From an uncultured Nitrososphaeraceae archaeon (GTDB taxonomy: Archaea; Thermoproteota; Nitrososphaeria; Nitrososphaerales; Nitrososphaeraceae), in assembly GCA_963779615.1 (NCBI GenBank), contig CAVZZA010000003.1, positions 1,056,001 to 1,120,000 on the forward strand: a stretch of DNA of 64,000 nt. Direction: 5' to 3'. The notes beneath the pieces are model-generated. The model searched no databases and was not told the DNA's origin. It saw nothing but the letters and a program-made list of their open reading frames with translations. A program made the translations under genes and the position numbers. Numbering within the stretch: position 1 is the first letter of the stretch; every line of letters begins with the position of its first letter. This document shows, in pieces, positions 9,483-34,402 of this stretch.

Positions 9483-9831
9483 TTTTTGATCACATCAACG
9501 TTAATTGTATAAAGTAATAAAAACTATCAAGCAAATGTTAAAACATCCAAGTGCATTATCCATCCCAATTAAAAACATCATTTCATAATTGTGGCATATC
9601 AGGACATAAAGCAACCATTTGCTAAAAATATCAGTTAATGCAAATGAAGATAAAGAGCAAACTAGTTGCTTAATACAAATCACACACATATAATCATTTA
9701 AAAATGCTCACATCGCAAGCTTTGGGCATAATTTGCATTTCCACAGATCAAAGACATCATTATTCACAACTTTAGCCCTACAAGCAAAAAAGACAACAAA
9801 ACATAATAGAATAGAACGCAACAACAAACAC

Positions 9832-11425
9832 ATGTTAGACGGTTCAGAACCCTCATCATCCATATCACAATCATCAATAAGCAATGATCTTTTAGGAGTA
9901 GTCATAGGAGTTACTAATTCAGGATACGTTATTTTTGAGGGAAAAGAGCCAGTGGGTCTCGGAGAATACATAGTTATAACAAATACCGACAAGAAAAAAA
10001 TATTGGGCGTTGTAGAATCATGCCTTATTAAAAGTGATGCCTTAGACGATATTTCAAATTTTCAAGAAGCTTTGGAAAGTAAAACTGTTGCCGAAATAAA
10101 TAAAAGAGACAAAAGTTTTAAAATTAGCGTTAAAATCTTAGGTTTACTGAATTTACTAAAACAGTCCAAGGTAATTTTACCCGAAATTCCGCCATTGCCA
10201 GGAACAGAGGTTTACAAGGCAAATAAAAATGATCTAGAGGAAATATTTAATCCTGAAGACGAATCATGGCTAAAAGTTGGAACCCTTTTACGAAACAGTA
10301 ATGTCAATGCAAAAATAAACATCAACAAACTTACTACTCGGCACCTTGGAATTTTGGCGATGACAGGCATGGGGAAAAGTAATTTGGTCAGCATAATAGC
10401 TAAAGCAATATCAGAAATACCCGGGACAATGGTTATCTTTGACTATCATGACGAATATCACTTCTTAGATGGTGAAAACATTAATTTTGTTCAGGCCCAA
10501 ATAAATCCAAGGCTCCTTACTGCAGAAAAGTTTGCAGAAGTGATTGAGGTCAGAGACAATGCAGATATTCAAAACACAATATTACTAAAAGCATTTGACA
10601 ATGACGATTTGAAGAATAAAACGGAAGACAATTTTTGGGATTTTTTAGAAAGCAATATTCAGGAAATAGGCCATAAAGAAAAAAGATTCACAACTTCTGC
10701 AGATAGGGTATTAGACAAAATAAAAGAGGCAAGGAAAAGGTTTGACAGCATTTTAATCCCTAATTCATCGGATCCTGTTTCACAAATCAAGGAAGGAAAA
10801 GTAAACGTAATTAATTTGATAGAATTCACAGAAAAGCAAGCTAATGTTGCAATTGCTTTTTATTTAGAATCGATATTGTATCAAAGAAAGTTATCGAAAA
10901 GCAAGGGCAAGGGTTTAATAGCAAAGAAACACCGGAAAAAATCAGGTTTTATTTCACAGTCCAGTTATTGTAGTAATAGAAGAAGCCCATGTATTTATTC
11001 CAAAAAATGAGAATACGGACACAAAATACATTGCATCAAAAGTGGCAAGGGAGGGCAGGAAATTTGGCGTAGGCCTAATAATAGTTTCTCAAAGACCCAG
11101 GTCACTCGATCCCAATGTTTTAAGCCAAATGGGTTCTTTATCAATAATGAAAATAGTTCAGCAAGAAGATCAATCACAGATAGGATCGGCTAGTGAAGCC
11201 ATAAATGGGAAAGTCATAGAGCAACTGCCTTCGCTGAATCCAGGAGAAGCTCTTTTTGTAGGCCAATGGGTAAATTTACCCTCATTTATAAAAATAGATG
11301 AAATTAAGGAGAGAACGATGGGAAAGGACCCCGAGCCTGTAAAAGAGTGGAAAAACAATCAAATAAGCAAGGAACTGTCGATAGAAGACTGCCAGTTTTA
11401 TATTCGGGAAGAATACATAGATTAA
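9832..11425 (+). CDS. herA: HerA helicase/ATPase, split by a frameshift at about 10922-10960
   Basis: HAS-barrel N-terminus, Walker A AMTGMGKS; Walker B VIVVIEEAH and REGRKFGVGLIIVSQRP lie in the next frame. Confidence 0.9.
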
Positions 11426-11447
11426 ACAATTGTTTTTACAAATATAA

Positions 11448-11762
11448 ATGGAACATCAGATATTTTTTCATCTGATGAACATTGCTTTAATAACAAAAGG
11501 TGAAAAACAGATAAGATTAAAACTATTTGACGAAAACTTGAAAGAACTGGCCGAAGAACAATTTCAAGACACATACACTTTGAATTTTTTTTTGCAGATA
11601 ATTCCAAAAAAATACAACACCAGCAAAACATTGATGATTCTCAATGATTTAGAAAGATTGAAAGATGTTAATGACGATAACGACAACAACAATGTTGAAT
11701 TAATATTAGCTAAAGATGAAAATTCGTATTTTATAAATGAATCACAAAACAACTGCCAATGA
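11448..11762 (+). CDS. hypothetical protein
   Basis: 104-aa ORF directly after herA; no motif. Confidence 0.5.
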   Translation: MEHQIFFHLMNIALITKGEKQIRLKLFDENLKELAEEQFQDTYTLNFFLQIIPKKYNTSKTLMILNDLERLKDVNDDNDNNNVELILAKDENSYFINESQNNCQ

Positions 11763-11775
11763 TTAACAGGCTGCA

Positions 11776-12051
11776 TTAATCACTGGGATCATTGTCAATA
11801 GTGTAAGATTTCCTTTCATTGGACACCTTGCCAAAAGTGTAAGATTTTCTTGCGACAGATACCTTGCTACTTGAATGGCAGATTGGACATTCTGCCCAGT
11901 TTTTACCCCCAGAATATTGCCAACAATGACTGCATTTTTGATAGGTACACTGAATCCATAACGACTTCTTTGGGTATTTTACCCAATTTGGTTGTTTGGG
12001 CTTTCTGGTCCTTCTTGCTTCTCTAGGTAAACGAGATAGCCTCATAGTCAT
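11776..12051 (-). CDS. basic zinc-ribbon protein
   Basis: CTYQKCSHC...CPIC cysteines; Arg/Lys-rich N-terminus; downstream of rad50. Confidence 0.65.
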   Translation of the reverse strand: MTMRLSRLPREARRTRKPKQPNWVKYPKKSLWIQCTYQKCSHCWQYSGGKNWAECPICHSSSKVSVARKSYTFGKVSNERKSYTIDNDPSD

Positions 12052-12126
12052 CTATCACACATTTTAAATGGTAATGCAAATATTAACCTTATCCAAAAGA
12101 AAGCAAAGAGGCAAAGAATATGTTGG

Positions 12127-14277
12127 CTAACATGGTGTAACAATAGATCCTTTGTCACTCATCGAAAATCTGTAAATTTGCTCTATTTCAGAGTTTTCAA
12201 ATATCTCCTCATCATGGGTGATAATTATAATTTGAGACAAAGGTCCAACACCTTTGCTAAAAACATCTGAAATTATCTTGACAAAGGAACGTCGACGCTC
12301 TTCATCCAAATTAGAAGTGGGCTCATCCAGTACAATAAAATCGATTTTTGAGGATCCCATCAAATACGCAATTCCCATCCTTAATGCCAACGATACAGCC
12401 ACTTTTTCGCCGCCGCTTAATGAGATTATATCTATTTCTCCACGCTTACCGTAACACAGAACCTTTATCTCCCTAGGTTTTTCTATCAAAGATATTTTAG
12501 ATATACCAACATTAAAGGTATTGATATAATCAGAGGATTTGACAGATATTAAATTTAATGCCCAAGTCCTTAAGCTAGAACTTACTATGCCATCCCTGTT
12601 GAAAACATTTGATCTGATTTTCTCAAGATCAGAAATAAAACCAGAAGCTGAGTACAATTCAGACTTCAAGCTGTCAAATTCAACAATCTCAGTTTCCAGA
12701 TCTGAGATAGTTTTTTCCAATATTGCTTTTTGTTTTTGTGTTTCGATGAATTTGGATGACAGTCTATTTTTTATGTCTTTCTTTTGTTTAAGAACGTTCG
12801 GGTCAACGTCAACAAGATCACTCTTCATTTTTGTTATAACATCAATCAAGTTTCCTGAATACTCATCAACTTTATAAGACAACCAGTTAGCAGTGCCTTT
12901 AAAATCATTAAAATCCAGCCTGGAAATAATTTGAAAATCTTTATTTAAAGACGTGAGCCTTTCTTCAAGAGCATCTACGTTTTGATTTACAGAAATGTCA
13001 TAAGATGACAAGGTCTTTTCTGCAGATATTATATTTTTTTCTTTTTTTCTGAAATCGAGTTCCTCCATATTTAACTTCAGTATATCAGATGCGATCAATG
13101 CCTTTTCTTGTTGTTTTTTACCTAATTCCTGCCTGATGTGAGAAATATCAAACATATCATTTATTGTGGTTATTTTGGAGTTACACACAGGGCATTTACC
13201 ATCCTTTATTTGGATTTTTTTTGCAAACTCGGTAAATCCATTTAACCTCCCAATTTCACCTTCTAACTTATTTGTCTTTTTAGTTAGTTCTTCTTTCTCC
13301 GATAGGACCATTTGTAGAGTAATAAAAACCTCATCTTTATTCTCCAGAACTGAAAGAGAGTTTTTTACTTCGAAAATCGTCTTTTTGATTTTCTCGATTT
13401 CAATCTTTAGGGAAAATGATTTTTCTTTTAAATATTTTAATAGCGTAGTCTCCAATGCCCTTATTTCTTGAAGTTTGGATATTTTAGGTTCCAAATCGTC
13501 TATTTCTTTTTCCACCACCAACATCTCATCAGTTATTTTAGATAAATCCGAATACACCGTATTAAGGGATATTTTTGATTTTTCAATTCTGTTTCGATTT
13601 TCTTCAGCTTTAGTTATCAGCATATTTATATGATGATCATCGTAACCTCCAGTCTTTTCCCTCAGTGAATTTCTAAACTCATCAATAATTGAATGCATAT
13701 ACGCAAATGACGTGTCCAAACGGTCCAGGCCCATCATATTGTTTAACAATTCCTTAAACTCCTTTGGTTGAGAGTCAATTATTTTATTAATTTCGCCTTG
13801 TTGTATTATACTAGCGATTTGTAACTTTTGATAGTTTATTCCCAATATTGTTTCGATTTCACCGACAACTGATTCTCCAAGTTGTTTTCGTTCCCCCGAT
13901 ATTACCGATCGGTAATCAGGTTTACTTTTTTCATTCCTACCAATTAGAACATTTTGTTTAAGTTGATCTAACTTAACAGACACAAGGTGTCCCGAGTTAT
14001 TGATTTGCCGGTGAATTTTATAATTAACAGAACCAACAGAAAAGTCCATAACAACAAAGGAGCCCGACTCATCAGACGATATTTGATTAATACCCTTGGT
14101 AACTAAATTTTTATTGGATTTGCGGGTATGTTCATCGAACAGCGCAAATGTGATGGAATCTATGATGCTGGATTTTCCGGATCCATTATGGCCTACAAAC
14201 ACAGTTATGCCAGGGGTAAACTCAAGGCTGGTATTTTTATGAGATAAAAAATTATTTAAAATTAATTTCTTTATCAA
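12127..14277 (-). CDS. rad50: DNA double-strand break repair ATPase Rad50
   Basis: Walker A GHNGSGKS, coiled coil with CPVC zinc hook, signature LSGGE, Walker B LDEPT, ITHD. Confidence 0.93.
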   Translation of the reverse strand: MIKKLILNNFLSHKNTSLEFTPGITVFVGHNGSGKSSIIDSITFALFDEHTRKSNKNLVTKGINQISSDESGSFVVMDFSVGSVNYKIHRQINNSGHLVSVKLDQLKQNVLIGRNEKSKPDYRSVISGERKQLGESVVGEIETILGINYQKLQIASIIQQGEINKIIDSQPKEFKELLNNMMGLDRLDTSFAYMHSIIDEFRNSLREKTGGYDDHHINMLITKAEENRNRIEKSKISLNTVYSDLSKITDEMLVVEKEIDDLEPKISKLQEIRALETTLLKYLKEKSFSLKIEIEKIKKTIFEVKNSLSVLENKDEVFITLQMVLSEKEELTKKTNKLEGEIGRLNGFTEFAKKIQIKDGKCPVCNSKITTINDMFDISHIRQELGKKQQEKALIASDILKLNMEELDFRKKEKNIISAEKTLSSYDISVNQNVDALEERLTSLNKDFQIISRLDFNDFKGTANWLSYKVDEYSGNLIDVITKMKSDLVDVDPNVLKQKKDIKNRLSSKFIETQKQKAILEKTISDLETEIVEFDSLKSELYSASGFISDLEKIRSNVFNRDGIVSSSLRTWALNLISVKSSDYINTFNVGISKISLIEKPREIKVLCYGKRGEIDIISLSGGEKVAVSLALRMGIAYLMGSSKIDFIVLDEPTSNLDEERRRSFVKIISDVFSKGVGPLSQIIIITHDEEIFENSEIEQIYRFSMSDKGSIVTPC

Positions 14278-15502
14278 TCCAAAGAATCATCATCCTTTTC
14301 TTGATAATTTTTTTTGTTATTTTCATAATATTTCCAAAGGTAATCAACAATTTTCTTGTTCTTGCCTTTGTCGATGTTCATGTTATTGGTGAGTTGTTCC
14401 TCATCATTTATCATCTGCACAAGATCTAAAGACAAGTTTGTCAGGTTTTCAGACTTTAGCGTATTTAAAACCAATTTTGAAAGCTCCTTATCGATTTTAA
14501 AATCGTTTGCATAGTCATAAGAATTGCCAGATACTGACTCCTCATCAAACGTGTTCCAGGCATAATACAAAAAGTAGTCGTTTAGTTTAGATAGTTCACC
14601 AGATAACATTTTAGGATCAATTTTTGCCCCTTTCACTTTTAGATCGAGTATAGGTTTTTTTTGGCAGTTCATGGATAAATCTAAAAGATATTTTAGATGC
14701 CTATCCAATTCACCATAATCTAGTGAGTGGCTTATTTGAAGTCTTCTTTTTTCGATCTTGATCCATTGTGTGGTAACATTTTCAGGGCTGTTTGAAACAT
14801 CAACCATAAGAAACCCTTTTTCCACATCTGAAATAGGCTCATTATGGCCAAGGTCAAGCGATCCGGGATAGGCAACCAAATGGTTTTCAATTTCAGGAAA
14901 GTTTTTTTGTATATGATCATGATAATGGCCCATTGCGTAATAATCAAACCCCAAGGGCAAATCGCTTGCAAAAATCTCACCTGCAAATTTATTAAAGTCA
15001 GATAATCCCTGATGGAGAACCAAAATTTTCTTTATCTTTTCCCTCTTATTTTGTCATTTTTTACCATTTTTTCTAATTTTTTAAATGGTTTAATTAATCC
15101 ATTATCAATGTTGGATCGTCTTTCCTTATTAAATCCATATATCAACAGGTCTTTTATTTGAGCAGGCGAATCTGGCTTAAGTCTTTTAGCTAATCCCAAA
15201 TTATGAAACAAAAATAGAAGGGGCACATCATTGGTTCTGCTTATATCATGCTCCCCAAGTATAAAATAAACAGGAATAGATTTTTCCTTTAGTTTTTTTA
15301 ATTCACGCGCTAATCTTATAACAGAGGCGCCATTGGGTTTGGGATTATGGAAAATGTCCCCAGCAAGAATTATTGCTTCAACGTGTTCATGAATAGATTT
15401 ATCTACTGATTCTTCAAATGCCGCGTAAAGATCTTCTTCACGCTCTTGTAGATTAAACTGGGCGTAACCTAAATGAATATCCGAAATATGGGAGATAAGC
15501 AA
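14274..15502 (-). CDS. mre11: DNA repair nuclease Mre11, split by a frameshift near 15050
   Basis: SDIHLG, GDIFH and GEHD in ORF 15032..15502; VLHQG, GHYH and YPGS in ORF 14274..15023; one extra A in a homopolymer would join them. Confidence 0.9.
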
Positions 15503-18688: not shown

Positions 18689-19463
18689 ATGAGAGAAGTT
18701 GGGAAAGGAAACTTTCCAAAAGACATTGACGTCAAAATTGCAGAGACGGGTAATGGGATATACAGAATATCAGGGTTTGACGACACATTTGGCATCACAT
18801 TTAACCAATTTTTAATTGATGATGACCAACCAATGCTCATCCATACAGGCCCTATCGGGATGTACAAGAAAATAGAAGAAAAAGTAAAGGAAATAATTCC
18901 ATTGAGCAAATTAAGCTATGTCGCATTCCTACACTTTGAAAGTGATGAATGGGGAGGGATGGCATTTCTTGATTCTGCGGATGCCAAATTGGTATGCAGT
19001 GATTTGAGCTCGAAATTAAATTTGACGGGATGGTACAACATCCCTGTTGACCACATTTCGTTTTGGGACAATGAAACTCTAAAAACAGGCAAGAGGAGGT
19101 TCAAATTCATCATGACCCCCCATGTTCACCATTGGGACAGCATGATGGTTTTTGAGGAGTCGACACAGTCACTTTTCCCATCAGACCTGTTTATTCAGCC
19201 AGGCAACAACAGAACAGTTACAGAAGAGGACCTATCAGACAGCATGCTTGCCCTCTATAGAGGCGCAGGAATATTTGCAAGCGAAGGCCCAGTACAGGCA
19301 AACAACCAAAAGGCTTGAAAGGTTGAATCCAAAAATGGTATTTCCCATGCACGGCTCTTGCATTGATGGCTCCATCTTTCCAAAATATGTGGATGCGATA
19401 ATGGACAATAAATTTGCGTATTCGGGGATGGTGCTTGGGCAGGAATTGGAAACAGTCAGCTGA
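18689..19463 (+). CDS. MBL-fold di-iron protein (FprA N-terminal/ODP-like), frameshifted near 19295
   Basis: FNQFLI, LIHTG, HFESDE, PHVHHWD and SDLF; the final PMHG motif is in the overlapping ORF 19152..19463. Confidence 0.85.
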
Positions 19464-19866: not shown

Positions 19867-20534
19867 GGCTCTGTTAACTTAAGAGATTATTTCGCTATTG
19901 TGGTGATAAGCAAACAGATTCAACCATTGTTTTACGTGCTTTAGTTTGCATTTCTTCCTTCTACACGGAAAATAATCGTCAAATCCTTCTGTCCTGTCCT
20001 TGATGTACTGCACAGTCCTCTCTATCAGGCTTTTCTCAAAAGGGGAATGCAGATGATGCTTTAGTTTCAGGAACCTGCATGCTTGTGGATACCAAGTTCC
20101 CCCATCTGTTGAAACCGGATGCTTTCCATACCTATTTGTCAGAGACGCAATAAACCGTTCGGCTACAAGTATTGCTCTTTCAACTGACACATCAATCCAA
20201 AGGATTTTCCTGTGTTTTGGTTCAATTGCAACCCAAGGCCATGTGTGTTGGGAGCCAACCTTAATCTGGGTTTCATCAACAACATACCCATGAACCTTTT
20301 TTTCTCTTGGTTGATAGTCTCTTTGGCCTGTATTTTTGAATCCATTTCCAGACTGACCCCGGGCTTCTTTCCACAAATCGGTTTAACGCCTTTGCAGTGC
20401 TTCTATAAGAGAGACCAAGGAAGTAAAGATATAGTGAATAGGCAATATCCTTTGATTTAGTTCTCTGCATTAGGCACATCAATATCGCTTATGGCATAAC
20501 CGCAACTATAGCTTTTTCTTAAGCTAACAGAGCC
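19867..20534 (-). mobile_element. IS6 family insertion sequence with frameshifted transposase
   Basis: TIRs GGCTCTGTTAACTTAAG / CTTAAGCTAACAGAGCC; VDETQIKVG, STDGGTWY and IERTVQYIKDR DDE motifs; HTH N-terminus in ORF 20276..20482. Confidence 0.92.
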
Positions 20535-20971: not shown

Positions 20972-21005
20972 TACTTATAAGCAATACTTATAAGCAATAC
21001 TTATA
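20972..21005 (+). repeat. 13-bp tandem repeat (TACTTATAAGCAA, about 2.6 copies) upstream of the DUF1611 operon
   Basis: gTACTTATAAGCAA TACTTATAAGCAA TACTTATA read directly. Confidence 0.75.
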
Positions 21006-21039: not shown

Positions 21040-22170
21040 ATGAGCATCATACAGAAAAATGTAGAATATTCAACCAGATCTAACCCCATTAATATGAATT
21101 ATGGTCAAATAAAGTGGTCATGGGCAAGTAGATTGTTACGCAGCGATCATGAATATGAAATTACTAAAGCAAAAGAATATAGTGACACGCCTGTTGTAGG
21201 GGATCTGGGATTATTCAGGGTTATTCGTGTTGGCTCTCACACCAGACTGATAAATATGGATAGTAGGAAAATGAGAATTTATGAAGGAGATTTGTTCGTG
21301 GGTATTTTTGGCAATAGATATGCAACAGATGCTTTTGAAGCAGAAGTAGAAGGGTTGAAAGATCTTTCATTGTTGACTACTGCAGGCATGGTAGGAAGGA
21401 TAAAATCCAGTCATAACTCAACTGGTAGATCTACAGAGGTTTCATTTTTGGGTTTTCTGAAGGACAAGACATCAAACCAAAAAAAAATAAATCTCAAGCA
21501 AACAATATTTAAAAAAAGGTATCTTGATCATTCTTTATCAAGACCTAAAGGACTAGGAAATCTATTGGCTATAGTAGGATCAGGAATGAGTTCCGGAAAA
21601 ACAACCTTTTGTAGAAAATTAGTAAAATCGCTTTCTCAAAAGGGATTATCGGTAGCCGCCTGTAAATTGACAGGGAGCATTTCCCCAAGGGATTTTGATG
21701 AAATGGTTTCGGCAAGTGCCATTTATGTAACAGATTTTAGCGACTATGGTTTTCCTTCCACATATAAATGCGAAGAGAAGGAATTACTTAAATTATTTGA
21801 AATCATGTTATATGATATAGAAAAGTTAAATCCAGATATCATAATAATGGAAATAGCAGATGGTGTTTTACAACAAGAAACCAATTTCTTGTTAAATGAA
21901 CCCTTATTTCAAAAAAGGGTAGGCGGATTAGCGGTTGCAGCAGATAATGCGCCTTCTGCTCTATACACAGTAAACCATCTTGCGAGTTTAGGGTACAAAA
22001 TACTTGCATTATCCGGAGCCATAACATCATCTCCTCTATACGTAAGAGAATTTGAAAAAATGTCTGCTATACCCGTGATATCCTCTGCGGCTAACACCAT
22101 AAGAGTTGGTTCGTTATTTAACAATTTAATAAAGAAAAAAGAAAATATTCACCATAGTTTGGTAGAATGA
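21040..22170 (+). CDS. DUF1611-like P-loop protein
   Basis: GNRYATDAFEA, P-loop GSGMSSGKTT, KLTG, DFSDYGFPSTY and EIADG motifs. Confidence 0.8.
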   Translation: MSIIQKNVEYSTRSNPINMNYGQIKWSWASRLLRSDHEYEITKAKEYSDTPVVGDLGLFRVIRVGSHTRLINMDSRKMRIYEGDLFVGIFGNRYATDAFEAEVEGLKDLSLLTTAGMVGRIKSSHNSTGRSTEVSFLGFLKDKTSNQKKINLKQTIFKKRYLDHSLSRPKGLGNLLAIVGSGMSSGKTTFCRKLVKSLSQKGLSVAACKLTGSISPRDFDEMVSASAIYVTDFSDYGFPSTYKCEEKELLKLFEIMLYDIEKLNPDIIIMEIADGVLQQETNFLLNEPLFQKRVGGLAVAADNAPSALYTVNHLASLGYKILALSGAITSSPLYVREFEKMSAIPVISSAANTIRVGSLFNNLIKKKENIHHSLVE

Positions 22171-25100
22171 GCGGCAGTAAAAAAAACGGAAGGAAAAACA
22201 AATCAATTATAAAATACGGGCTGACTTTCCTAAAGCGATACAGAACCAAACTTTCTTTTGCAATATTTTGGTCCATCCTTTTTGTTATAATTCCAATGCA
22301 AATACCAGTAATTACGGGCACGTTAGTTGATGGATTGGGTGCAAGCGGTGAAAATCCAATTTCATTCTACAGTATTGAAATTGGCAAGACTCCTTATGAT
22401 GCTTTAAAGTTCGGCATTGTCAGCCTGTTGAGTGTTTCTTTGCTATATGGCATTACAGCTTATATGAGAATTTCCCGTGCATCAATTGTTAGCAGGAAGT
22501 TTGTTTTTGAGCTTCAAAGGGCAATAGTTCAAAAATTAGAATTCCTATCCTTGGATGTCCATAGAAAATATGGTTCTGGCGACCTTTTAAACCACATAAT
22601 AGTGGATACCAACAATGTAAGGCCCTTTGTGGAAACAACAGTTATAAAAACAATAACCAACATTGCCAGAATATCATATCCTCTTGTTATACTTGTTCTT
22701 ATTGATCCCTTTCTGGCAATGGTTGCATATTCAATATTGCCTGTTCAATATTTATCCATAAGAAAGATTCAGTCAAAAATAAGCCATGTGTTGGCACAGC
22801 AGAGAAATGATAAATCAAGGTTAACCACACTGTTAAAAGAAAATCTTGACAATATCGAAACCATCCAATCGTCCAGTGCTGAAAAAAACTTGATAGGAAA
22901 AATAACAAGCGATATTGGACAGATTGAGTCATCGCAAATAAAGGCTCAACGCCAATATGGAATTATGATGGGTTGTGCATACGGTTTAACAGCATTGGGT
23001 ATGGCATTGATTTGGTGGTTCGGAGGACAAAAAGTTTTGCATAATGAAATCACTCTCGGTCAACTTGTAATATTCTCAGGGTTTCTTCTCTTCGCTTATG
23101 AGCCAGTCCGATACTTTACCAGGAACGTAAAAGATCACCACAGGAGCATTATCGCATTGAAACACATACGAGCGGTTTTAGAGATACCCTCTTCTATTAA
23201 TGAGGAATATGACGCTCCAGGTTTAAGAGCATCAAACTGCAACATAGTTTTTCAGCATGTCTCTTTTTCCATTGGTAAAAAAAATAAAAGCATACTAAAG
23301 GATGTTTGTTTAGACATAAGCCCCAAAAGCATTACGGTGCTTGTTGGGAAAAGCGGATCTGGGAAAAGCTCTATTTTGAAATTGATTATGCGATTATATG
23401 ATCCCTCTGAAGGGAAGGTATTGATTGACGGGCAAGACATTAAGCATGTTTTGGTATCTTCCCTAAGATCACAAATTGCCCTGGTGCCTCAGAGTCCTGT
23501 AGTGTTTTCTGGAACAATCAAAGAGAATATTCGCTTGGCAAACCCTGATGCCTCAGACAAGGAAATTGAAGAGGCATGCATTGCTTCGGATGCTTTATTG
23601 TTTATTAATAAATTTGAAAAGGGATTAAGTACAATCGTTGGTCAAGGGGGTGTACATTTGTCGGGTGGGGAAGTTCAAAAAATAGCTATTGCAAGAGCAT
23701 TGCTGAAGAAACCAAAAATATTATTATTGGACGAGCCCACATCTGCAATAGATACTGAATCTGCAAAGCACATCATGAATACATTGAACAGCTTAAGAAA
23801 GTCCATGACAATCGTCGTTGTAGATCATAGCATAAATTCAGTTGTTCAAGCAGACAATGTGATTACCATAAATGACGGGGTTGTGGTCGATACCAAAAGT
23901 AGAACGATGGTAAAAGAACTTTACAATGGATCGTATCTTGCTTACTCTCAGGACAATTTTAGCTATACGCTTTTAAATCATAATCAAACTAATATATTCC
24001 CCAACGGAATAAGTGGTATGGCATCAGATGTGGATGTTCCGCAGGGTGGAAGCATTGAAGGAAATAGCATAGATTACAGGGTCATTGGTAGAACCACCAA
24101 TAAACGGCGGATAGATGTTGTCTTTGTCGGTGATCAAAATAATCCGAAATTAAAGGTTTTCGTCTTTGCAGGGCAACATGGTGATGAAAAAGGTAGCAGG
24201 CAGTCGGCCCTGAGGCTAATCGATCATCTGATAAAAACCAAAGAGTTCCCCGATATCTGTGTCGGTGTTTTGTCTAATGCAAATCCTGATGGAGCCTTCA
24301 AAAACAAACGTCAAAACACTGCAGGAATTGATTTGAACAGAGACCACTTGTTATTAATGTCGGAAGAAAACCGCGCAATACATTCCTTTATTCAATCTTG
24401 GAAGCCAAATGTAATAATAGATGTCCACAACTATCCGCCTGTAAAGGAATACTTGAAGAAGAATAACTATGCATTTTACCAGGACGTGCTCATAGACGGG
24501 CCCACCAATCCCAGCATTATCAAAAAATTTGATAAAGATCAATTTGGTAGTTTATTGAATCATTTGCAATTGGATCTAGGCAAGTTTAACTATAGTTGTG
24601 ACAGGTATGTGTTAATCGATCCAGAGGGCAGGGCAAGGCATAGTACAGACGATATTGTTGATGCAAGGAATTTTTTGTCGTTAAGGCATAACGCTTTAAC
24701 CATCTTGGTTGAAGGAAAAGAACCCCTGCCTGGAAAAGATAAGGATCAGCAGTTAGAGCGCAGTATTTCTGCGCAATATCTTGCTCTCGTATCTATCCTA
24801 AAGTGGATCACCCAAAACAAATCCATCATACTTGAGAATCCCCAAACTGCAAATGAAAAAGCAGACAGGATTTCAATTAGATACAAGTTCAGCGAACCTG
24901 AAAAAAACTTTAAAATGAAATTTCTAAATACAGTTTCTAATGAAATTGAAGAATTTGCCATTCCTGCTTATGAATCATCTTTGGAAGACAGGAGAACTGT
25001 TAAAATGCCTTATGCGTATGCAATTCCAGGCAGCAAAGACAAATTGTTGGCCATTTTGCATGGTCACGGTTTTACCTCCACTAGGCTGGATAAATCAGAA

Positions 25101-25403
25101 TTATTCAAAGTACAGAAATATCTCGTGCTAGCATGCGAGCCTTCAAAAGCCAGCACAAAAAGAAAACCAAGGCCGCCTACAAACGTCCGATTGATAACCC
25201 TTGAGGAAGAAAAAGATTTATCGGGTTATGTTATTTTTAACACCAGTCAGGAGGGAGGATATTCACTGCCGCTCTTATTAGAACCTCAATCAGAATATGG
25301 GCTCACACGGTATGAAGAGTTGGGTTTAGACGTTACCCCAACGAAAGATTTTGATGCTTTAAGAATAACAGACAAAAAGTTCAGAGACATCCATAATAAT
25401 TGA
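22167..25403 (+). CDS. ABC exporter (TMD plus NBD) fused to a C-terminal M14 zinc carboxypeptidase domain
   Basis: TM helices, GKSGSGKS, LSGGE, LLDEPT; then GQHGDE, NPDG, RQN..GIDLNRD and IDVH M14 motifs; overlaps the upstream stop (ATGA). Confidence 0.88.
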   Translation: MSGSKKNGRKNKSIIKYGLTFLKRYRTKLSFAIFWSILFVIIPMQIPVITGTLVDGLGASGENPISFYSIEIGKTPYDALKFGIVSLLSVSLLYGITAYMRISRASIVSRKFVFELQRAIVQKLEFLSLDVHRKYGSGDLLNHIIVDTNNVRPFVETTVIKTITNIARISYPLVILVLIDPFLAMVAYSILPVQYLSIRKIQSKISHVLAQQRNDKSRLTTLLKENLDNIETIQSSSAEKNLIGKITSDIGQIESSQIKAQRQYGIMMGCAYGLTALGMALIWWFGGQKVLHNEITLGQLVIFSGFLLFAYEPVRYFTRNVKDHHRSIIALKHIRAVLEIPSSINEEYDAPGLRASNCNIVFQHVSFSIGKKNKSILKDVCLDISPKSITVLVGKSGSGKSSILKLIMRLYDPSEGKVLIDGQDIKHVLVSSLRSQIALVPQSPVVFSGTIKENIRLANPDASDKEIEEACIASDALLFINKFEKGLSTIVGQGGVHLSGGEVQKIAIARALLKKPKILLLDEPTSAIDTESAKHIMNTLNSLRKSMTIVVVDHSINSVVQADNVITINDGVVVDTKSRTMVKELYNGSYLAYSQDNFSYTLLNHNQTNIFPNGISGMASDVDVPQGGSIEGNSIDYRVIGRTTNKRRIDVVFVGDQNNPKLKVFVFAGQHGDEKGSRQSALRLIDHLIKTKEFPDICVGVLSNANPDGAFKNKRQNTAGIDLNRDHLLLMSEENRAIHSFIQSWKPNVIIDVHNYPPVKEYLKKNNYAFYQDVLIDGPTNPSIIKKFDKDQFGSLLNHLQLDLGKFNYSCDRYVLIDPEGRARHSTDDIVDARNFLSLRHNALTILVEGKEPLPGKDKDQQLERSISAQYLALVSILKWITQNKSIILENPQTANEKADRISIRYKFSEPEKNFKMKFLNTVSNEIEEFAIPAYESSLEDRRTVKMPYAYAIPGSKDKLLAILHGHGFTSTRLDKSELFKVQKYLVLACEPSKASTKRKPRPPTNVRLITLEEEKDLSGYVIFNTSQEGGYSLPLLLEPQSEYGLTRYEELGLDVTPTKDFDALRITDKKFRDIHNN

Positions 25404-25709: not shown

Positions 25710-26430
25710 ATGATGTTGACGACCAAATCCAAATTGGTTAGTTCCTACAAAAAGGAAACAGACTCAGAGGTTAAGGAAAGACTGCCATTAGTTATCAGGT
25801 AAGAGAAGACGGACGCATTCCTTTTCTTGTTGTTATGGTGATGAAAAGAAGCTACCCTTGGGCGGGGCTGGCTAAAAAGATATGATAAGGAAGGCATTGA
25901 GGGACTGAAGGATAGGACAAGAAGCGGCAGAACACCTGAGATATCACAAGAGACTTCCAGTCAAATAAAAAAAGAACTAGCTGGCTCCAAACAGGGCGGG
26001 ACAACAAAACAGGTGGAAGAGCTGTTTGTGGAGAAAAGCGGCACAAAATACCATTATACCCACACATACCGCATACTTCGCAAATGGGGTTTCAAGCAGA
26101 AGGTGCCAGGAAAAGCGCATGTCACCACGGCATCCAAAGATGAGAAAGAGGCTCTCAAAAAAAGGCCACAGAGCATCGCCGCACCACAGGCCAAGGAAGG
26201 TTAGGAAGTATTTTGGCAGGCATAAAGGCAGCCTGATATCAGTATACCTTCCAACCGCATCACCAGGGTTTATGGTGATGTAGGGCGGTATGGAACATGG
26301 CCAAACGAGATTTGTTTATCCTAGAACACTAGTCATCATTTACCGATTTTAAAAACAAGATATCTCTTTTTCAGAACAAAAAGATTCGGTCTTGATGCGA
26401 GAAACTATCTTCTTAGGAATACACTTTAGG
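25710..26430 (+). mobile_element. degraded IS630-family transposase remnant
   Basis: Fragments YKKETDSEVKERL, EGLKDRTRSGR, YRILRKWGFKQKVP and YLPTASP with stops and frameshifts. Confidence 0.8.
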
Positions 26431-27035: not shown

Positions 27036-29006
27036 TCACCTTGGCAGCAATGCCCTGTGCATGTCCCACAGTATCAGTGTGTATTCGGACAGAAATGGCG
27101 GTCCCCCGCCAAAGTTTCGGGGCTCGCCACCGCGTGCAAACTGACAAGATTCGTCTCTTACCTGAACTGGCGCAGAATCCAGCTTTACCGGCTTGCTTGC
27201 CTCCTTGAAGACAACAGTGCTCTTGCTGTCATAGTTGCAGTCACCAGTCCTTGTCAGCGGGAGGTTGATTTCATCTGCAACGGATTGCTTTTTGAGCACC
27301 AGCCTCTTGTCGCCTGTGTTGAGCCCAAACCAATCCTCAACTCCGGCACCAGTGGATGGGTTTATGAAATCTACACGCATCCACTGCCAGCCACTTGTTG
27401 GGGTGCCATCCCTGCGCTGAAGGTCCGGCAGGGTTATCAGTTTGCCTGCGTCTGCCAACTCGGGTATCGGGACATCCCTTAGCCTGAGCGTGGTCTGTTC
27501 ACTGGTGTACACCATTGATATTTGTGTCAGGATGTTTTTGACCTCTAGGAGTGGGTACCTTGCCGGTGGTGGCTGCTCTCTGAACAGATCGTAATGATCT
27601 TTGTCCTGCACCATGACTGGCAGGTCAAACTCCCCATCCAGCCCCGCAATTCTGATTTTTCCTGGTTGCTCTTTTCTCTTGGATGAGTCATCTCCCACCC
27701 CATTAGGCCCGTATCCAAATGCAGACAGGAATTGAGGCGCCACGTCTGTGGTCGTTGCCCCAGTGTCAAAATTGTATTCCACTGGTTGGCTCCACGTTCC
27801 ATCTGGCAGCTTCAATTGAATAGGCAATATAGTCCTGGTTTCTGAACTTGTGAGGTTATAAACAAGAGTACTCTTTGGTTGTGACAGTATCCGAACCTCA
27901 GTTATTGAGGCCCATAGATTTTCAGTATTTCCGTTAACAGTTATCCTCACATATTTGGCATGTAATGTAGAGTTTGGAATAAGATAACGCTCCAGATAGT
28001 TAGTCTTTCCGCCGCTTTTGGACGAAAACACATTCACAAAGTTAGAGCCATCGTTAGAAGCAGAGACAGTAAACGCACTTGTCCTAAGATCGCCCCTTTG
28101 CCAGGCAATGTCAATGGCGCATACCACTGTACTGGGTTCAAGTTCATACTGAATATAAGATCCAATACCATAGTCACCCCATCTGGTGTCAAAGTTTTTG
28201 TCAAGGGTATTTTGCGGAACCTTAGTGCCATCATAACCACTTGAGCGAACTCCAAGTATCTTTGACTCGCCACACCCGGCAGTGGGAACAGTTGAGGACG
28301 GCTTTGACAGTATTTGAACCTCAGTTATTGAGGCCCAGTTATTTTCCGTGTTCCCATTGACAGTTATCCTTATGTATTTGGCCTGAAGATCGGGGTACTC
28401 AACAACATAACGCTCATAAGAGTTTGTCTTTCCGCCGCTTTTGGACGAAAACACATTCACAAAGTTAGAGCCATCGTTAGAAGCAGAGACAGTAAACGCA
28501 CTTGTCCTAAGATCGCCCCTTTGCCAGGCAATGTCAATGGCGCATACCACTGTACTGGGTTCAAGTTCATACTGAATATAAGATCCAATACCATAGTCAC
28601 CCCATCTGGTGTCAAAGTTTTTGTCAAGGGTATTTTGCGGAACCTTAGTGCCATCATAACCACTTGAGCGAACTCCAAGTATCTTTGACTCGCCACACCC
28701 GGCAGTAGGATCCGAGGCTAAAGATGCAGAAGGAGATATTTGGGAAGATGATGATGGGGTTTTGTACTGCAAAGGATCAGCATCAGAAGGTAAAGGTGCA
28801 GAGCGGGTGGATTTGGGGGAGGATGATGGGGTTTTGTACTGCAAAGGATCAGAGTACCTAAAAATAGGGACATCAAGATACTTGTCAAATAATTCAGAAA
28901 CAGATGATGCGGCATAAATCTTGGTAACAAGATCAGGCATGCCAGGCATAGCAAAGATTAACATTAAAACAACAGATGCGGATAACAAGCGGTTATATTT
29001 TATCAT
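27036..29006 (-). CDS. secreted protein with two discoidin (F5/8 type C) domains and a C-terminal aspartic-protease-like domain
   Basis: Signal peptide; duplicated NTLDKNFDTRW...YIRITVNGNTENNWASITEV domains; YNFDTGA and FGLNTGD motifs. Confidence 0.8.
   Translation of the reverse strand: MIKYNRLLSASVVLMLIFAMPGMPDLVTKIYAASSVSELFDKYLDVPIFRYSDPLQYKTPSSSPKSTRSAPLPSDADPLQYKTPSSSSQISPSASLASDPTAGCGESKILGVRSSGYDGTKVPQNTLDKNFDTRWGDYGIGSYIQYELEPSTVVCAIDIAWQRGDLRTSAFTVSASNDGSNFVNVFSSKSGGKTNSYERYVVEYPDLQAKYIRITVNGNTENNWASITEVQILSKPSSTVPTAGCGESKILGVRSSGYDGTKVPQNTLDKNFDTRWGDYGIGSYIQYELEPSTVVCAIDIAWQRGDLRTSAFTVSASNDGSNFVNVFSSKSGGKTNYLERYLIPNSTLHAKYVRITVNGNTENLWASITEVRILSQPKSTLVYNLTSSETRTILPIQLKLPDGTWSQPVEYNFDTGATTTDVAPQFLSAFGYGPNGVGDDSSKRKEQPGKIRIAGLDGEFDLPVMVQDKDHYDLFREQPPPARYPLLEVKNILTQISMVYTSEQTTLRLRDVPIPELADAGKLITLPDLQRRDGTPTSGWQWMRVDFINPSTGAGVEDWFGLNTGDKRLVLKKQSVADEINLPLTRTGDCNYDSKSTVVFKEASKPVKLDSAPVQVRDESCQFARGGEPRNFGGGPPFLSEYTLILWDMHRALLPR
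27890..28705 (-). repeat. 423-bp-period near-identical tandem duplication encoding the two discoidin domains
   Basis: Shadow ORFs 28034..28273 and 28457..28696 are identical, offset 423 bp. Confidence 0.9.
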
Positions 29007-32056: not shown

Positions 32057-34402
32057 CTAACATTGTTTTGGCACTGTCTTGGAATCCGTTTTAGTATTGC
32101 CTTTTGATGGACATTGCGTGTTGATACAAAATTGCCACTGATGCTTTGTTGGAAGAGAATACATGCATTTGATAATGGGCCACCTGCATTCAGTGCAAAC
32201 CTTACCAGTGTTTTTTATTCTTCCTTTTTGTGGTAATGGCGAAGTGGCAGTACATTTGTCAGATGAGTACAGAGAGCATCCAGCAAATCTTTTTTTGGTT
32301 TTGTTTGATTTTTTGATGACCAGATCACCTCTGTTGCAAACAGGGCACGCTCCCAGCATAACCTGTTGCCTATTCTTGGCTGCTACAACAGATTTAGTTG
32401 CTTCCAATGCACTTGTCATTTGTGCGCCTATCTCCCTTTGGTTTTCCTTAAAAAAAAATATTGCCTCTTTTAATTTATTTTTGGCATGATCTACCACATA
32501 CTCGCTTTTGATTTTGCCTGATTCAATTTTTTCCAACTGTTCGTCCATAGATCTAGTAAGGCCTGTAGACACTATGTTAGGTACGTATTTTCGCATCGCT
32601 CGTATTATTTCAAACCCAATATCTGTTGGCTTGATTCCGGTACTTAATGGGAGATCATTCATTTCTTTTTCCTTGGAAGGAACAACAGTATTGGTTATGT
32701 AATTTCTTTTATAGAGGGTGTTAATGATTTCGGACCTTGTGGCCTTGGTGCCAATTTTTTCTTTTTCCATCTTCTCTAGTAGACTAGACTGATTGAACCG
32801 TACCGGAGGCTGGGTAAACTTTTCTGTTAGGGTTATATCCACATTCTTCAACATGTCATCCTTGTGCAGTGTTGATAAAGCAATAGGCATTTCAACGTTA
32901 GACATATTGGCATACGGCTTGTAAAAATACCCCCATCCCTCATACAACACCCTCTTTCCCTCAGCTTTGAAAATGTGGATATCCTTCACCAAAATGGTAA
33001 CAATTGTTTGTTGGGTTACACAAGGATCTCCAAACGTGGCAAAAAATCTTTTTGCTATCAAATCAAATAATTTGAAGTCTGCATCCTCAAGTCTACCTTT
33101 TGGTTTTTGACCCGTGGGATAAATTGCGGGATGTGCTGGATCGGTTTTACTGCCTTCATTTGGATAAATATGTTCTTTTGACAGCAACCTCATAGCCAAA
33201 TCAGCATAAGCATCGTCATCTTCATTGCCATGGATGGCATAACGAGAACGAAAACCAATTTTTGAAAGACCTGAAACAATTTTCTTGTAATTGATAGAGA
33301 CTGGAAGCTTTTGACTGGATGTTCTCGGATAGGAAATCAATGCAGAGAGATACAGTTTCTCGGCAACAGATAGGGTATAACCTGGAGAGAATTTGAATAC
33401 TCTATAGGCTTCCTTCTGAAGATCGCCAAGGTTAAAAGGATATGGAGGCTTAAGCGTTATCTTTTGAACTTTAATTTCGGTAACCTTGCCATCTTGATTT
33501 TTGCAGGCATTGACTATTAAAGTTGCTTTAGACATGGAATCCAGTTTTTGCGGATAATAGTATGCATGAAACACATGTCCATCTTTTTCAAATTCACCTG
33601 TTATTGTCCAATATGGCACAGGAATATGGTTTCTTATCTCAATTTCTTTATCCACTACGAAAGCAAGCGTTGGACCCTGTACTCTACCAATTGTCAAGTT
33701 GTAGTACATTTTACCATCACTGCTATTCTTGAAAGACTGCGTAAGGGCTCTGGAAAGGTTAACTCCATAAATAAAATCAATCATATGACGAGATTTACCT
33801 GCATCGGCTAATCTTATAATTGGTTTTAACAAGTTATCAAATGAGTGTCTTATTTCATCGTCTGTGAGAGTTGAAAATTTTGCCCTCAATGACTCTTCAT
33901 ATTTGTTATTACATGCATATTCCAAAATATTGTAGCCGATTACTTCACCTTCCTGGTCATAATCACACGCGTGAATAAAGATTGAAGCTTTTTGGGACAG
34001 TATGGATATTGTTTTTATAATTTTTTTAATTTTTTCAGACATTATATCTAAATTATTTCCTCCACTGCTTTTTTTTTTAATCGGCACCCATTGGATGTCA
34101 AATACAGGATATAAACTACGGTTCGCGCCTACATCAATCAGTCCATACAAATGACCCAACGCATAACATATAACAAAGTGTTGACCCTTTTTATTGGTTG
34201 CAAAGAAAAAAGGCAATGACATCCTTGTTGTTTTGTTATCATCACGAATCTCAGAATCTGATATGCTTTTTAAACTAGATGTTCCAAGAGCATGTGCTAT
34301 TCTTTGTGCAGCGGCAGGTTTTTCACAAATTACCAAGGCGAATGGCCGGGGTATACTAACAATGCCTGATGCGCTCAAGTCTACTATTTTATTCTCACCC
34401 AA
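32057..34402 (-). CDS. topA: DNA topoisomerase type IA
   Basis: TOPRIM ICEKP and ACDYDQEGE, GRVQGPTL, catalytic ISYPRT, GIGT-like IGTKATR, C-terminal Zn ribbons. Confidence 0.95.
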   Translation of the reverse strand: MGENKIVDLSASGIVSIPRPFALVICEKPAAAQRIAHALGTSSLKSISDSEIRDDNKTTRMSLPFFFATNKKGQHFVICYALGHLYGLIDVGANRSLYPVFDIQWVPIKKKSSGGNNLDIMSEKIKKIIKTISILSQKASIFIHACDYDQEGEVIGYNILEYACNNKYEESLRAKFSTLTDDEIRHSFDNLLKPIIRLADAGKSRHMIDFIYGVNLSRALTQSFKNSSDGKMYYNLTIGRVQGPTLAFVVDKEIEIRNHIPVPYWTITGEFEKDGHVFHAYYYPQKLDSMSKATLIVNACKNQDGKVTEIKVQKITLKPPYPFNLGDLQKEAYRVFKFSPGYTLSVAEKLYLSALISYPRTSSQKLPVSINYKKIVSGLSKIGFRSRYAIHGNEDDDAYADLAMRLLSKEHIYPNEGSKTDPAHPAIYPTGQKPKGRLEDADFKLFDLIAKRFFATFGDPCVTQQTIVTILVKDIHIFKAEGKRVLYEGWGYFYKPYANMSNVEMPIALSTLHKDDMLKNVDITLTEKFTQPPVRFNQSSLLEKMEKEKIGTKATRSEIINTLYKRNYITNTVVPSKEKEMNDLPLSTGIKPTDIGFEIIRAMRKYVPNIVSTGLTRSMDEQLEKIESGKIKSEYVVDHAKNKLKEAIFFFKENQREIGAQMTSALEATKSVVAAKNRQQVMLGACPVCNRGDLVIKKSNKTKKRFAGCSLYSSDKCTATSPLPQKGRIKNTGKVCTECRWPIIKCMYSLPTKHQWQFCINTQCPSKGNTKTDSKTVPKQC

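Follow-up and report, generated by a model that had tools for sequence, protein, structure and literature searches.

A carboxypeptidase of family M14 fused to an exporter-type ABC half-transporter in a Nitrososphaeraceae archaeon: a lineage variant of a conserved, uncharacterised module

Introduction

Peptidase-containing ABC transporters (PCATs), which include bacteriocin exporters, carry an N-terminal peptidase domain of the C39 type, and to our knowledge the peptidase-fused ABC transporters known so far are mainly built in this way. In these proteins an exporter-fold ABC half-transporter carries the peptidase on its cytoplasmic side, where cleavage can be coupled to transport. The present analysis concerns two adjacent genes, called the cassette below, located in a 64,000-nucleotide stretch of DNA from an uncultured Nitrososphaeraceae archaeon (GenBank assembly GCA_963779615.1, contig CAVZZA010000003.1, positions 1,056,001 to 1,120,000). 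This whole stretch will be referred to as the window. The first gene encodes a P-loop enzyme (P0001), and the second (P0002) an ABC transporter continued by a peptidase. P0002 shares with the PCATs the features just mentioned, but its peptidase is a zinc carboxypeptidase of family M14 placed after the nucleotide-binding domain (NBD), instead of a C39 cysteine endopeptidase placed before the transmembrane domain. The cassette belongs to a real, well-conserved and uncharacterised module.

A preliminary description of this locus, made from the sequence alone, had presented it as a DUF1611 protein coupled to an ABC exporter-M14 peptidase fusion, which together would modify, trim and export an unusual peptide or amino-acid polymer. 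The coordinates of all the features are given in Table 1.

Organization and Reality of the ABC-M14 Fusion

The two genes lie on the same strand, and the stop codon of P0001 overlaps the start codon of P0002 by four bases (ATGA, GTAGAATGAGC) at positions 22167-22170, as was noticed in the preliminary description. All the Pfam matches of P0002 are above their cut-offs: those with ABC_membrane and ABC_tran are followed by a match with Peptidase_M14 at residues 638-728 (E 1.1e-9, 38.8 bits versus a cut-off of 21.6). The motifs of the ABC part are intact (Walker A at residue 394, the LSGGE signature at 498, Walker B at 519 and the H-loop near 555), and the M14 motifs are found at residues 671 (HGDE), 706 (NPDG), 722 (DLNRD), 752 (DVHN) and 849 (LVEGK, including the catalytic glutamate). 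With an ABC_membrane domain followed by an NBD with intact motifs, P0002 has the organization of an exporter-fold ABC half-transporter, and the single 1078-aa frame with its transmembrane domain, NBD, linker and M14 motifs stands as first described.

Positions 23805-24350, which include the linker, are covered by contigs of four runs (three independent DNA runs and one run of an RNA library), in which neither a stop nor an insertion or deletion was found, and one contig record spans positions 23361-24350. A search for the same domain architecture (ABC_membrane, ABC_tran and M14) yielded 17 protein clusters, 974-1114 aa in length apart from one of 681 aa lacking the membrane domain, with identities over the C-terminal part ranging from 100% down to 30%. 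Scanning one genome per species yielded 238 relatives of P0001, and the best 79 loci were examined: the ABC and M14 parts are fused in two of the 46 loci carrying both (L017 and L042) and are encoded by separate genes in the other 44. The latter count is in line with the idea that the long frame might be an artefact of assembly or sequencing joining two genes, and so is the situation at locus L054 (G010:C17, 4818-5431, in a Nitrosocosmicus bin), where the ABC and M14 parts share one frame but are separated by about 200 codons containing about 20 stops. The open frame of 1343 aa reported for this genome was rejected as a fusion because of these stops; the sequence looks like that of a formerly fused gene in which an insertion, or else decay of the linker, has split the two parts. 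In the window, however, such an artefact is practically excluded, since the contigs of four runs are free of indels across the linker and the 17 independent clusters share the fused architecture, as do L017 and L042. P0002 is therefore a real fusion. Homologues are thus not always encoded as two separate genes, and the fused architecture put forward initially is real, but it is not the rule: the comparison of loci shows it to be a lineage variant of what is usually a three-gene module.

Contigs of an RNA-labelled soil library match parts of both genes at 95-99% identity; they may originate from a relative or from DNA carry-over. The base composition of the cassette does not differ from that of its surroundings. 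The perfect tandem repeat located upstream of P0001 is a possible promoter region, in which a possible archaeal promoter element is duplicated.

The scores obtained by P0002 with the NCBIfam ABC models are MsbA/HlyB/TAP-like. Its membership of the PCAT family was considered and rejected: no C39 peptidase match was obtained with Pfam, the peptidase is located at the opposite end, and the scores with the PCAT models TIGR01193 and TIGR03796 (215-236 bits) are far below the cut-offs (524-853 bits). Unlike the situation in PCATs, no leader-peptide substrate gene was found near the cassette. P0002 works like a PCAT but stands outside that family. It also differs from the cyanophycin metabolism-associated ABC transporter, the model of which (NF052233) gave 280.8 bits versus a cut-off of 880, a score no better than those of MsbA-type models. 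An anti-phage search with PADLOC-DB gave nothing for P0001 or for the M14 part with its C-terminal (CT) domain, and only generic ABC-ATPase matches for P0002. The prediction of a complex between P0001 and the M14+CT part returned a score of 0.00 with "no answer," which speaks neither for nor against a contact.

The M14 Peptidase and the C-Terminal Domain

The model of residues 590-1078 of P0002, which is based on 39 homologues (pLDDT 88), shows a canonical M14 fold, with Z scores of 26.1 to carboxypeptidase B (7eqx, rmsd 2.5 over 233 residues) and 24.9 to 4a37, a cytosolic-carboxypeptidase-like enzyme of Pseudomonas. The top Foldseek matches (E about 1e-12) belong to the bacterial cytosolic-carboxypeptidase-like group, and 4a37 is also the best PDB sequence match (E 9e-4). 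The zinc ligands H671, E674 and H754, the substrate-carboxylate residues N724/R725 and the catalytic E849, which we take to map onto their counterparts in the numbering of carboxypeptidase A, are invariant in the 39 aligned homologues. To judge from these residues, the M14 domain is catalytically complete, and from its position after the NBD it lies on the cytoplasmic side; both points lend support to the preliminary description. The free-standing M14 homologues start directly with the domain, and have neither a hydrophobic N-terminus nor a signal peptide.

The same zinc and catalytic residues are present in the bacterial cytosolic-carboxypeptidase-like enzymes (4a37, 4b6z, 3k2k, 3l2n) and in MpaA (5hxd, 4axv). 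The M14 part of P0002 differs from these enzymes in that it shows only about 18-20% identity with them, lacks an N-terminal beta-sandwich, carries a CT domain of 190 residues instead, and is fused or adjacent to an ABC pump. For the CT domain no known fold was matched, the matches of the fold searches spanning model residues 33-331 only. CphZ (8ein) is a distant structural relative (Z 16.8). MpaA, which cuts gamma-D-glutamyl bonds and to which the domain had initially been likened, turned out to be a weak relative, with a PDB sequence match to 5hxd at E 0.49 and a structural Z score of 19.8; assignment to MpaA was rejected, the stand-alone homologues reaching 29-38 bits versus a cut-off of 157 with NF007897. 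The M14 part is a true M14 member, the nearest group being the bacterial cytosolic-carboxypeptidase-like enzymes and not MpaA.

The P-Loop Enzyme P0001

P0001 consists of two domains: an N-terminal all-beta domain (about residues 25-145) and a BioD/DUF1611-like SIMIBI P-loop domain (170-365). The latter contains the Walker A motif GSGMSSGKTT (180-189) and the motifs ACKLTGS (207), DFSDYGFPSTY (232) and MEIADG (270); the former contains the invariant residues R93, Y94, A95 and E100 in an FGNRYATD..E.E motif. In the AlphaFold2 model (61 homologues, pLDDT 90.5), the Z scores of the P-loop domain are nearly tied: 16.6, 16.5 and 16.4 with BioD structures, 15.8 with 2g0t, 15.0 with CTP synthase, 14.7 with 2obn and 14.2 with 7xrj, which is named DgcN in its PDB title. 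In the fold searches made with the whole model, the P-loop domain takes up the lists of matches. Only this C-terminal domain was aligned (with 2g0t, 172 residues at rmsd 3.0, model residues 157-363 only), and the N-domain was superposed on none of the BioD, DUF1611 or DgcN structures. When a profile of 57 sequences of the N-domain was compared with the PDB sequences, nothing was found (best E 3).

Assignment of P0001 to DUF1611, as in the preliminary description, was not upheld. The Pfam score with DUF1611 is 13.2 bits (E 0.06) versus a cut-off of 25 and covers only the P-loop (residues 176-230), the scores with MobB and CbiA are about equal to it, and no NCBIfam model matches P0001. What P0001 has in common with 2g0t, 2obn and 7xrj is the fold of the C-terminal P-loop domain, a fold which does not single out DUF1611 since that of BioD is at least as close. 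The N-domain is made of strands only, whereas the DUF1611_N domain is, as we take it from Pfam's name, Rossmann-like. Some members of the P0001 family have weak Pfam scores with DUF1611 or carry that name in databases. The resemblance to the carboxylate-activating domains of the BioD and CobQ/CTP synthase type, a group which provides the best structural matches and the best PDB sequence match (E 0.004), includes a lysine-containing strand motif after the P-loop, ACKLTGS, presumably comparable to the KPV motif of BioD. The identity is only 14-16%, however, the additional N-domain has invariant residues of its own, and there is no biotin-pathway context.

The P0001 family is sizeable: 605 clusters at 50% identity were obtained at E<=1e-30 among 1.84 billion representatives. 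It has no Pfam or NCBIfam model, no paper on it was found in the literature covered, and P0001 matches only unnamed or weakly named clusters in the ESM Atlas. The archaeal and bacterial members show 45-50% identity, and 32 residues, many of which are in the N-domain, are invariant in 61 sequences. This degree of conservation speaks for an enzymatic role, with a small substrate that is itself conserved.

A passage of PMC10845958 mentions a DgcN-DgcA pathway for D-glutamate. In the chemistry favored in the preliminary description, a DgcN-like enzyme would act on D-glutamate, an MpaA-like M14 peptidase would act on gamma-D-glutamyl bonds, and a peptide containing D-glutamate would be made and exported. 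DgcN and MpaA do occur among the structural matches, and a gene for a CapA-like protein, a family linked to poly-gamma-glutamate systems, travels with the cassette. Since P0001 does not belong to DUF1611 and its N-domain differs, the D-glutamate chemistry of DgcN is nevertheless not transferable to it; the MpaA match is weak and the Z score lower than that with carboxypeptidase B, and the neighborhoods showed neither a racemase nor a DgcA-like gene, the partners of P0001 being an ABC pump and peptidases. We regard this chemistry as highly improbable.

A Module Conserved in Archaea and Bacteria

Linkage was analyzed in the 54 loci where the P-loop protein is at least 39% identical to P0001, with 5.5 kb or more of DNA available downstream in 39 of them. 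In all these 39 loci an M14+CT gene is present on the same strand, and in 37 of them an ABC gene is located between the P-loop and M14 genes, the exceptions being L064 and L068. The carriers belong to the Nitrososphaerota, Thermoplasmatota, a Methanophagales bin, Acidobacteriota, Planctomycetota, Desulfobacterales, and Myxococcota-labelled and Verrucomicrobiota bins. The neighborhood of the relatives of P0001 thus bears out the link between the genes well beyond the window: the P-loop, ABC and M14 genes form a conserved module, which is probably horizontally mobile. No description of this module was found in the literature covered, subscription journals being outside the coverage.

In a FastTree phylogeny of 78 sequences, the P-loop proteins fall into an M14-linked clade (53 rows) and an M14-less clade (25 rows), each with 100% local support, and those of the Nitrososphaerota, including P0001, form a single group of 17 rows (96% support). 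In most loci of the M14-less clade the ABC gene still adjoins the P-loop gene and the third partner varies. It can be an Asparaginase_2 gene (cluster 9, present in 11 of all 79 loci); in the Flavobacteria loci this gene comes after the ABC gene, in the company of a TonB-type outer-membrane protein and of a beta-propeller protein with a T9SS tail. The third partner can also be an M36-like zincin, either alone or fused to PGA_cap, or an esterase-like protein. In 23 bacterial loci from both clades, single-pass and polytopic membrane proteins are inserted (for example L039 9832-11357, L084 9826-11327, L023 11146-12962 and L020 11694-14333). The polytopic protein is HTTM-like, with a profile match to the membrane domain of the vitamin-K-dependent carboxylase (E 3.7e-5), and in places it is fused to a DCC1-like thiol-disulfide oxidoreductase or to an M48 peptidase domain; it was not found in the window's genome. 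The 965-aa ORFs of L045 and L049 (Thermoplasmata), which might have passed for fusions of P-loop and ABC parts, were rejected as such because the parts are in different frames, the ORF being over-extended in GC-rich DNA.

All the ORFs of 20-110 aa present in 83 loci were clustered in order to find a co-encoded precursor, and no multi-taxon family was found outside the large genes, the exceptions being IS-derived pieces and, in three Nitrosopumilaceae/Nitrososphaera loci, two small membrane proteins. Many of the loci are flanked by regulators (ECF sigma factors, two-component systems, a Ser/Thr kinase), and a receiver domain is present in three of the 25 long members of the P0001 family. An Opp/Dpp-type uptake operon (SBP_bac_5, two permeases and ATPases) adjoins the module in L021, L025, L031, L032, L039 and L094; it is interleaved with it in L094, and in the Acidobacteria loci the SBP_bac_5 and permease genes are adjacent to it. 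In some archaeal loci, cupredoxin genes are located upstream, in L026 (4830-6641) and L036 (2391-2867), and ArsR-type helix-turn-helix (HTH) genes directly upstream in L024 (4610-4945) and L038 (1789-2442); these neighbors may be due to chance in copper-rich ammonia oxidisers.

These neighbors bring to mind a metallophore-type cycle, in which the P-loop enzyme would build a small chelating peptide, the ABC transporter would export it, a separate Opp- or TonB-type importer would return the loaded form, and cytosolic hydrolases would destroy it and free the cargo. The occurrence of import components beside the pump in two unrelated groups (of the TonB type in Flavobacteria, and SBP_bac_5 with permeases in Acidobacteria and L094), the ArsR-type and cupredoxin neighbors, and hydrolases which appear to be cytosolic, as release after re-uptake would require, are consistent with a cycle of this kind. 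The neighbors vary from one lineage to another, however, cupredoxins are presumably abundant in ammonia-oxidising archaea, so that their adjacency may be fortuitous, no importer was seen in the window, and the argument is drawn from gene neighborhood and not from chemistry. A metallophore cycle therefore seems very unlikely.

Genes Travelling with the Cassette in the Lineage

Homologues of P0001 and P0002 were found in exactly the same four of 61 related genomes and are adjacent in each of them, which supports the view, proposed before, that they form a functional unit. In the genus (34 genomes), these are the window's genome (G000), G010, G021 and G023. Two genes located further downstream in the window, those encoding a CapA-like protein (PGA_cap) and an Asparaginase_2 hydrolase, are each present in the same three of the 34 genomes (G000, G021 and G023). 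The Asparaginase_2 match begins at residue 13, so that there is no signal peptide. The family of the secreted proteins with a DTGA motif is present in four of the 34 genomes (G000, G021, G023, and one fragment in G008); in the longer of the two proteins of the window, the two F5/8 type C domains are nearly identical. Its DTGA domain matches ESM Atlas aspartyl-protease clusters with a score of 0.87 and Pfam is silent, so that the aspartic-protease-like nature of these proteins is to be taken as a lead only. A third copy of this family lies elsewhere in the genome (G000:C3:236930-237877). Kinship alone does not explain these counts, since a flanking UbiD-family gene is present in 22 of the 22 genus genomes searched, including G018 and G003 (UbiD 90% identical), which do not carry the set.

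The order of the genes varies. In G023, the end of the NBD, M14+CT, PGA_cap and Asparaginase_2 follow each other on one strand within 4.8 kb, and in G021 the last two genes are about 160 bp apart, based on protein-match coordinates. In L042, which belongs to another branch of the Nitrososphaeraceae, the order is secreted-domain protein, P-loop gene, fused ABC-M14 gene and Asparaginase_2, while in L018 pieces of PGA_cap follow the M14 gene and Asparaginase_2 is upstream on the opposite strand. In the window, the same four genes are all on the forward strand, split by segments of 5.1 kb (25.4-30.5 kb) and 8 kb (31.8-40.0 kb), which contain an HTH remnant, the two secreted paralogues, a topoisomerase IA gene and unknown ORFs, and are absent between the homologues in G021 and G023. 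The HTH remnant lies inside the 5.1-kb segment absent in G023. Pieces similar to the N-terminal piece of the IS6-type remnant located upstream of the cassette are found at the same place in L016/L054 and L050. The region is therefore accessory and flanked by insertion sequence (IS) remnants, as had been noted, with IS6-type DDE and transposase-type HTH remnants and a distribution limited to four of the 34 genus genomes. The window contains a rare fused variant inside a mosaic accessory region.

Some other observations were made in the surroundings. The topoisomerase IA gene (32057-34402, reverse strand) is located in the 8-kb segment between PGA_cap and Asparaginase_2, and in G023 the spacer between these two genes contains a 320-bp stretch (L098 987-1308) with 68% identity to the 3' part of the topoisomerase gene, which may be the trace of an older rearrangement. 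An ODP-family gene with a metallo-beta-lactamase fold (209 aa, Pfam E 1.5e-15), followed by an overlapping ORF of 103 aa in another frame (18689-19463 together), may represent a frameshifted gene neighboring the IS6 remnant. Further upstream (9733-15502), a putative HerA/NurA/Rad50/Mre11-like repair cluster was recognized by eye from the translations; the HerA-like gene is split into two ORFs (9733-11010 and 11042-11425), and so is the Mre11-like gene (15032-15502 and 14274-15023).

Table 1. Positions in the window of the cassette, its domains and the surrounding features.
Feature	Position	Strand	Evidence or remarks
P-loop enzyme P0001, 376 aa	21040..22170	+	Pfam, AlphaFold2 model, alignments
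Fused ABC exporter, M14 carboxypeptidase and C-terminal domain, P0002, 1078 aa	22167..25403	+	
Transmembrane domain, ABC_membrane exporter-type fold, residues 31-308	22257..23090	+	PF00664, E 1.8e-30
NBD, residues about 377-582	23295..23912	+	ABC_tran PF00005 at 377-526, E 1.1e-32; motifs
Linker, about 50 residues, without stop or indel	23913..24062	+	pLDDT 31-45 for model residues 1-40; contigs of four runs
M14 carboxypeptidase domain, residues 633-889	24063..24833	+	Pfam, fold match, invariant catalytic residues
Conserved CT domain, residues 890-1078, beta-rich	24834..25400	+	Motifs LPxAYAxP and LLEPxSxYGL
13-nt perfect tandem repeat TACTTATAAGCAA, 2.6 copies	20972..21005	+	With TATA-like boxes (TTATAA); 35-68 nt before the start of P0001
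CapA-like protein (PGA_cap), 416 aa, no N-terminal hydrophobic segment	30513..31763	+	E 2e-54, 185 bits versus 27
Asparaginase_2 Ntn hydrolase (isoaspartyl peptidase/L-asparaginase type), 321 aa	40017..40982	+	E 2.2e-85
Secreted protein, 656 aa: signal/anchor, two F5/8 type C domains, domain of about 280 aa with DTGA motif	27036..29006	-	
Paralogue of the C-terminal domain of 27036-29006, 331 aa	35299..36294	-	82% identical over 280 aa
Frameshifted IS6-type transposase remnant	19879..20482	-	DDE_Tnp_IS240 at 19879-20376 (E 8e-7); N-terminal piece at 20276-20482
Transposase N-terminal HTH remnant, no start codon or DDE part	25845..26204	+	HTH_32/HTH_33, E 4.5e-11

Comparison with Poly-Gamma-Glutamate and Cyanophycin Systems

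The association of PGA_cap and Asparaginase_2 genes with the cassette is reminiscent of the PgsBCA/CapBCA systems and of cyanophycin catabolism, which involves an isoaspartyl dipeptidase and CphZ. Unlike PgsA/CapA, the PGA_cap protein of the window has no membrane anchor. In the window's genome (92.5% complete), PgsB (TIGR04012) and CapC/PgsC (PF14102) gave no matches, the controls being found in Bacillus subtilis, and no cyanophycin synthetase was detected above the threshold. The idea of a peptide or amino-acid polymer, which was part of the preliminary description, gains some support from these co-travelling genes.

One can speculate further that the P0001 family, with its BioD-type P-loop domain and novel beta domain, might be a new ATP-dependent amide-bond-forming enzyme building an omega-linked acidic (gamma-glutamyl or beta-aspartyl) oligo- or poly-amino acid, with no need for a ribosome, a non-ribosomal peptide synthetase, an ATP-grasp enzyme or a Mur-type ligase. 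The orphan CapA-like protein would then play the role it has beside PgsB, the ABC transporter would export the chain, and the M14 and isoaspartyl peptidases would set its length or recycle it. We consider this proposal doubtful. If it were true, an unrecognised pathway for a secreted amino-acid polymer or peptide would be common to soil ammonia-oxidising archaea, Acidobacteriota, Planctomycetota and others.

Export or Uptake

The reading we prefer, with a rough probability of 40%, is that a small peptide-like compound ending in a carboxylate is synthesized or trimmed at the cytoplasmic face of the membrane and that this process is coupled to its export. The P-loop enzyme would spend ATP at the inner face of the pump in making or modifying a compound with a free carboxylate end, probably an acidic or omega-linked residue of the Asp/Glu type, the carboxylate being activated in the manner of BioD, CobQ and CTP synthase. 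A C-terminal residue would then be removed by the tethered carboxypeptidase, either for maturation or for proofreading, and the ABC dimer would pump the product out. The fusion would merely hard-wire a contact between peptidase and pump which is made elsewhere by separate subunits.

Export is preferred because the membrane domain has the ABC_membrane exporter fold with MsbA/HlyB/TAP-like scores, because the import machineries found next to the module in two unrelated groups (Opp-type and TonB-type) are separate systems, and because regulators flank many loci and a receiver domain occurs within the P0001 family itself. The fusions in the window, in L017 and L042, and in the 17 clusters provide Rosetta-stone support for the cooperation of the parts. 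A theme of peptides and acidic residues runs through the partners, which include Asparaginase_2, PGA_cap, the M36-like zincin and the HTTM-like protein, sometimes with M48 or DCC1.

Several points weigh against this reading. Its substrate, its product and its direction of transport are all deduced from the genes; neither a conserved small precursor ORF (among those of 20-110 aa in the 83 loci) nor any other conserved biosynthetic enzyme was found in the neighborhood; and ligase chemistry is not established, since DgcN, an acetyltransferase, and plain NTPase switches are among the relatives of the P-loop domain. In addition, the hydrolases of the lineage appear to be cytosolic, given the position of the M14 domain, that of the Asparaginase_2 match and the N-terminus of PGA_cap, which is hydrophilic as judged by eye. 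This location is at least as compatible with a compound being imported and broken down as with its synthesis, and the co-travelling secreted protease-like protein also fits nutrient acquisition. Of the "modify-trim-export" proposal made in the preliminary description, the linked gene set and the intact cytoplasmic peptidase have stood, and the rest is still conjecture.

The main rival is uptake followed by breakdown. Exporter-fold ABC transporters working as importers do exist, as in the case of the siderophore importers IrtAB and YbtPQ. The pump would import peptides freed outside by the secreted protease-like proteins, and the M14 peptidase, the isoaspartyl peptidase/asparaginase and the CapA-like protein would degrade them into amino acids and ammonia for the ammonia oxidiser, the P-loop enzyme processing one of the products; like DgcN, it might for instance acylate an unusual amino acid. 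Besides the cytosolic character of the M14, Asparaginase_2 and PGA_cap hydrolases, this explanation would account for the presence in the same genomes of secreted aspartic-protease-like genes with lectin domains, which adjoin the cassette in L042, and for the Opp-type peptide-uptake genes interleaved in L094 and adjacent in the Acidobacteria loci; a cytosolic enzyme domain carried by the pump would act on the incoming cargo, as we take the domain of IrtA to do. It does not explain the very high conservation of the P-loop enzyme, however, the core has no solute-binding protein, and in most of the loci from archaea and Planctomycetota it is present without any of the additional hydrolases. This fold is presumably rare among importers, and where Opp-type importers are present, an extra pump would be redundant. 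Uptake seems to us somewhat unlikely, and synthesis or trimming coupled to export is retained as the preferred reading.

Significance

A metallo-carboxypeptidase located behind the ATPase domain is a different solution from that adopted in the C39-containing transporters, and the physical fusion tells which members of a widespread uncharacterised module act together. The module has tractable bacterial carriers in which its function can be tested. In the ammonia-oxidising archaea it is accessory and associated with insertion sequences, and is accompanied by peptidases and an enzyme of the asparaginase type. For this reason it may be relevant either to the secretion of a peptide-like compound or to the tapping of organic nitrogen by some soil strains, and either of these would be new for this group.

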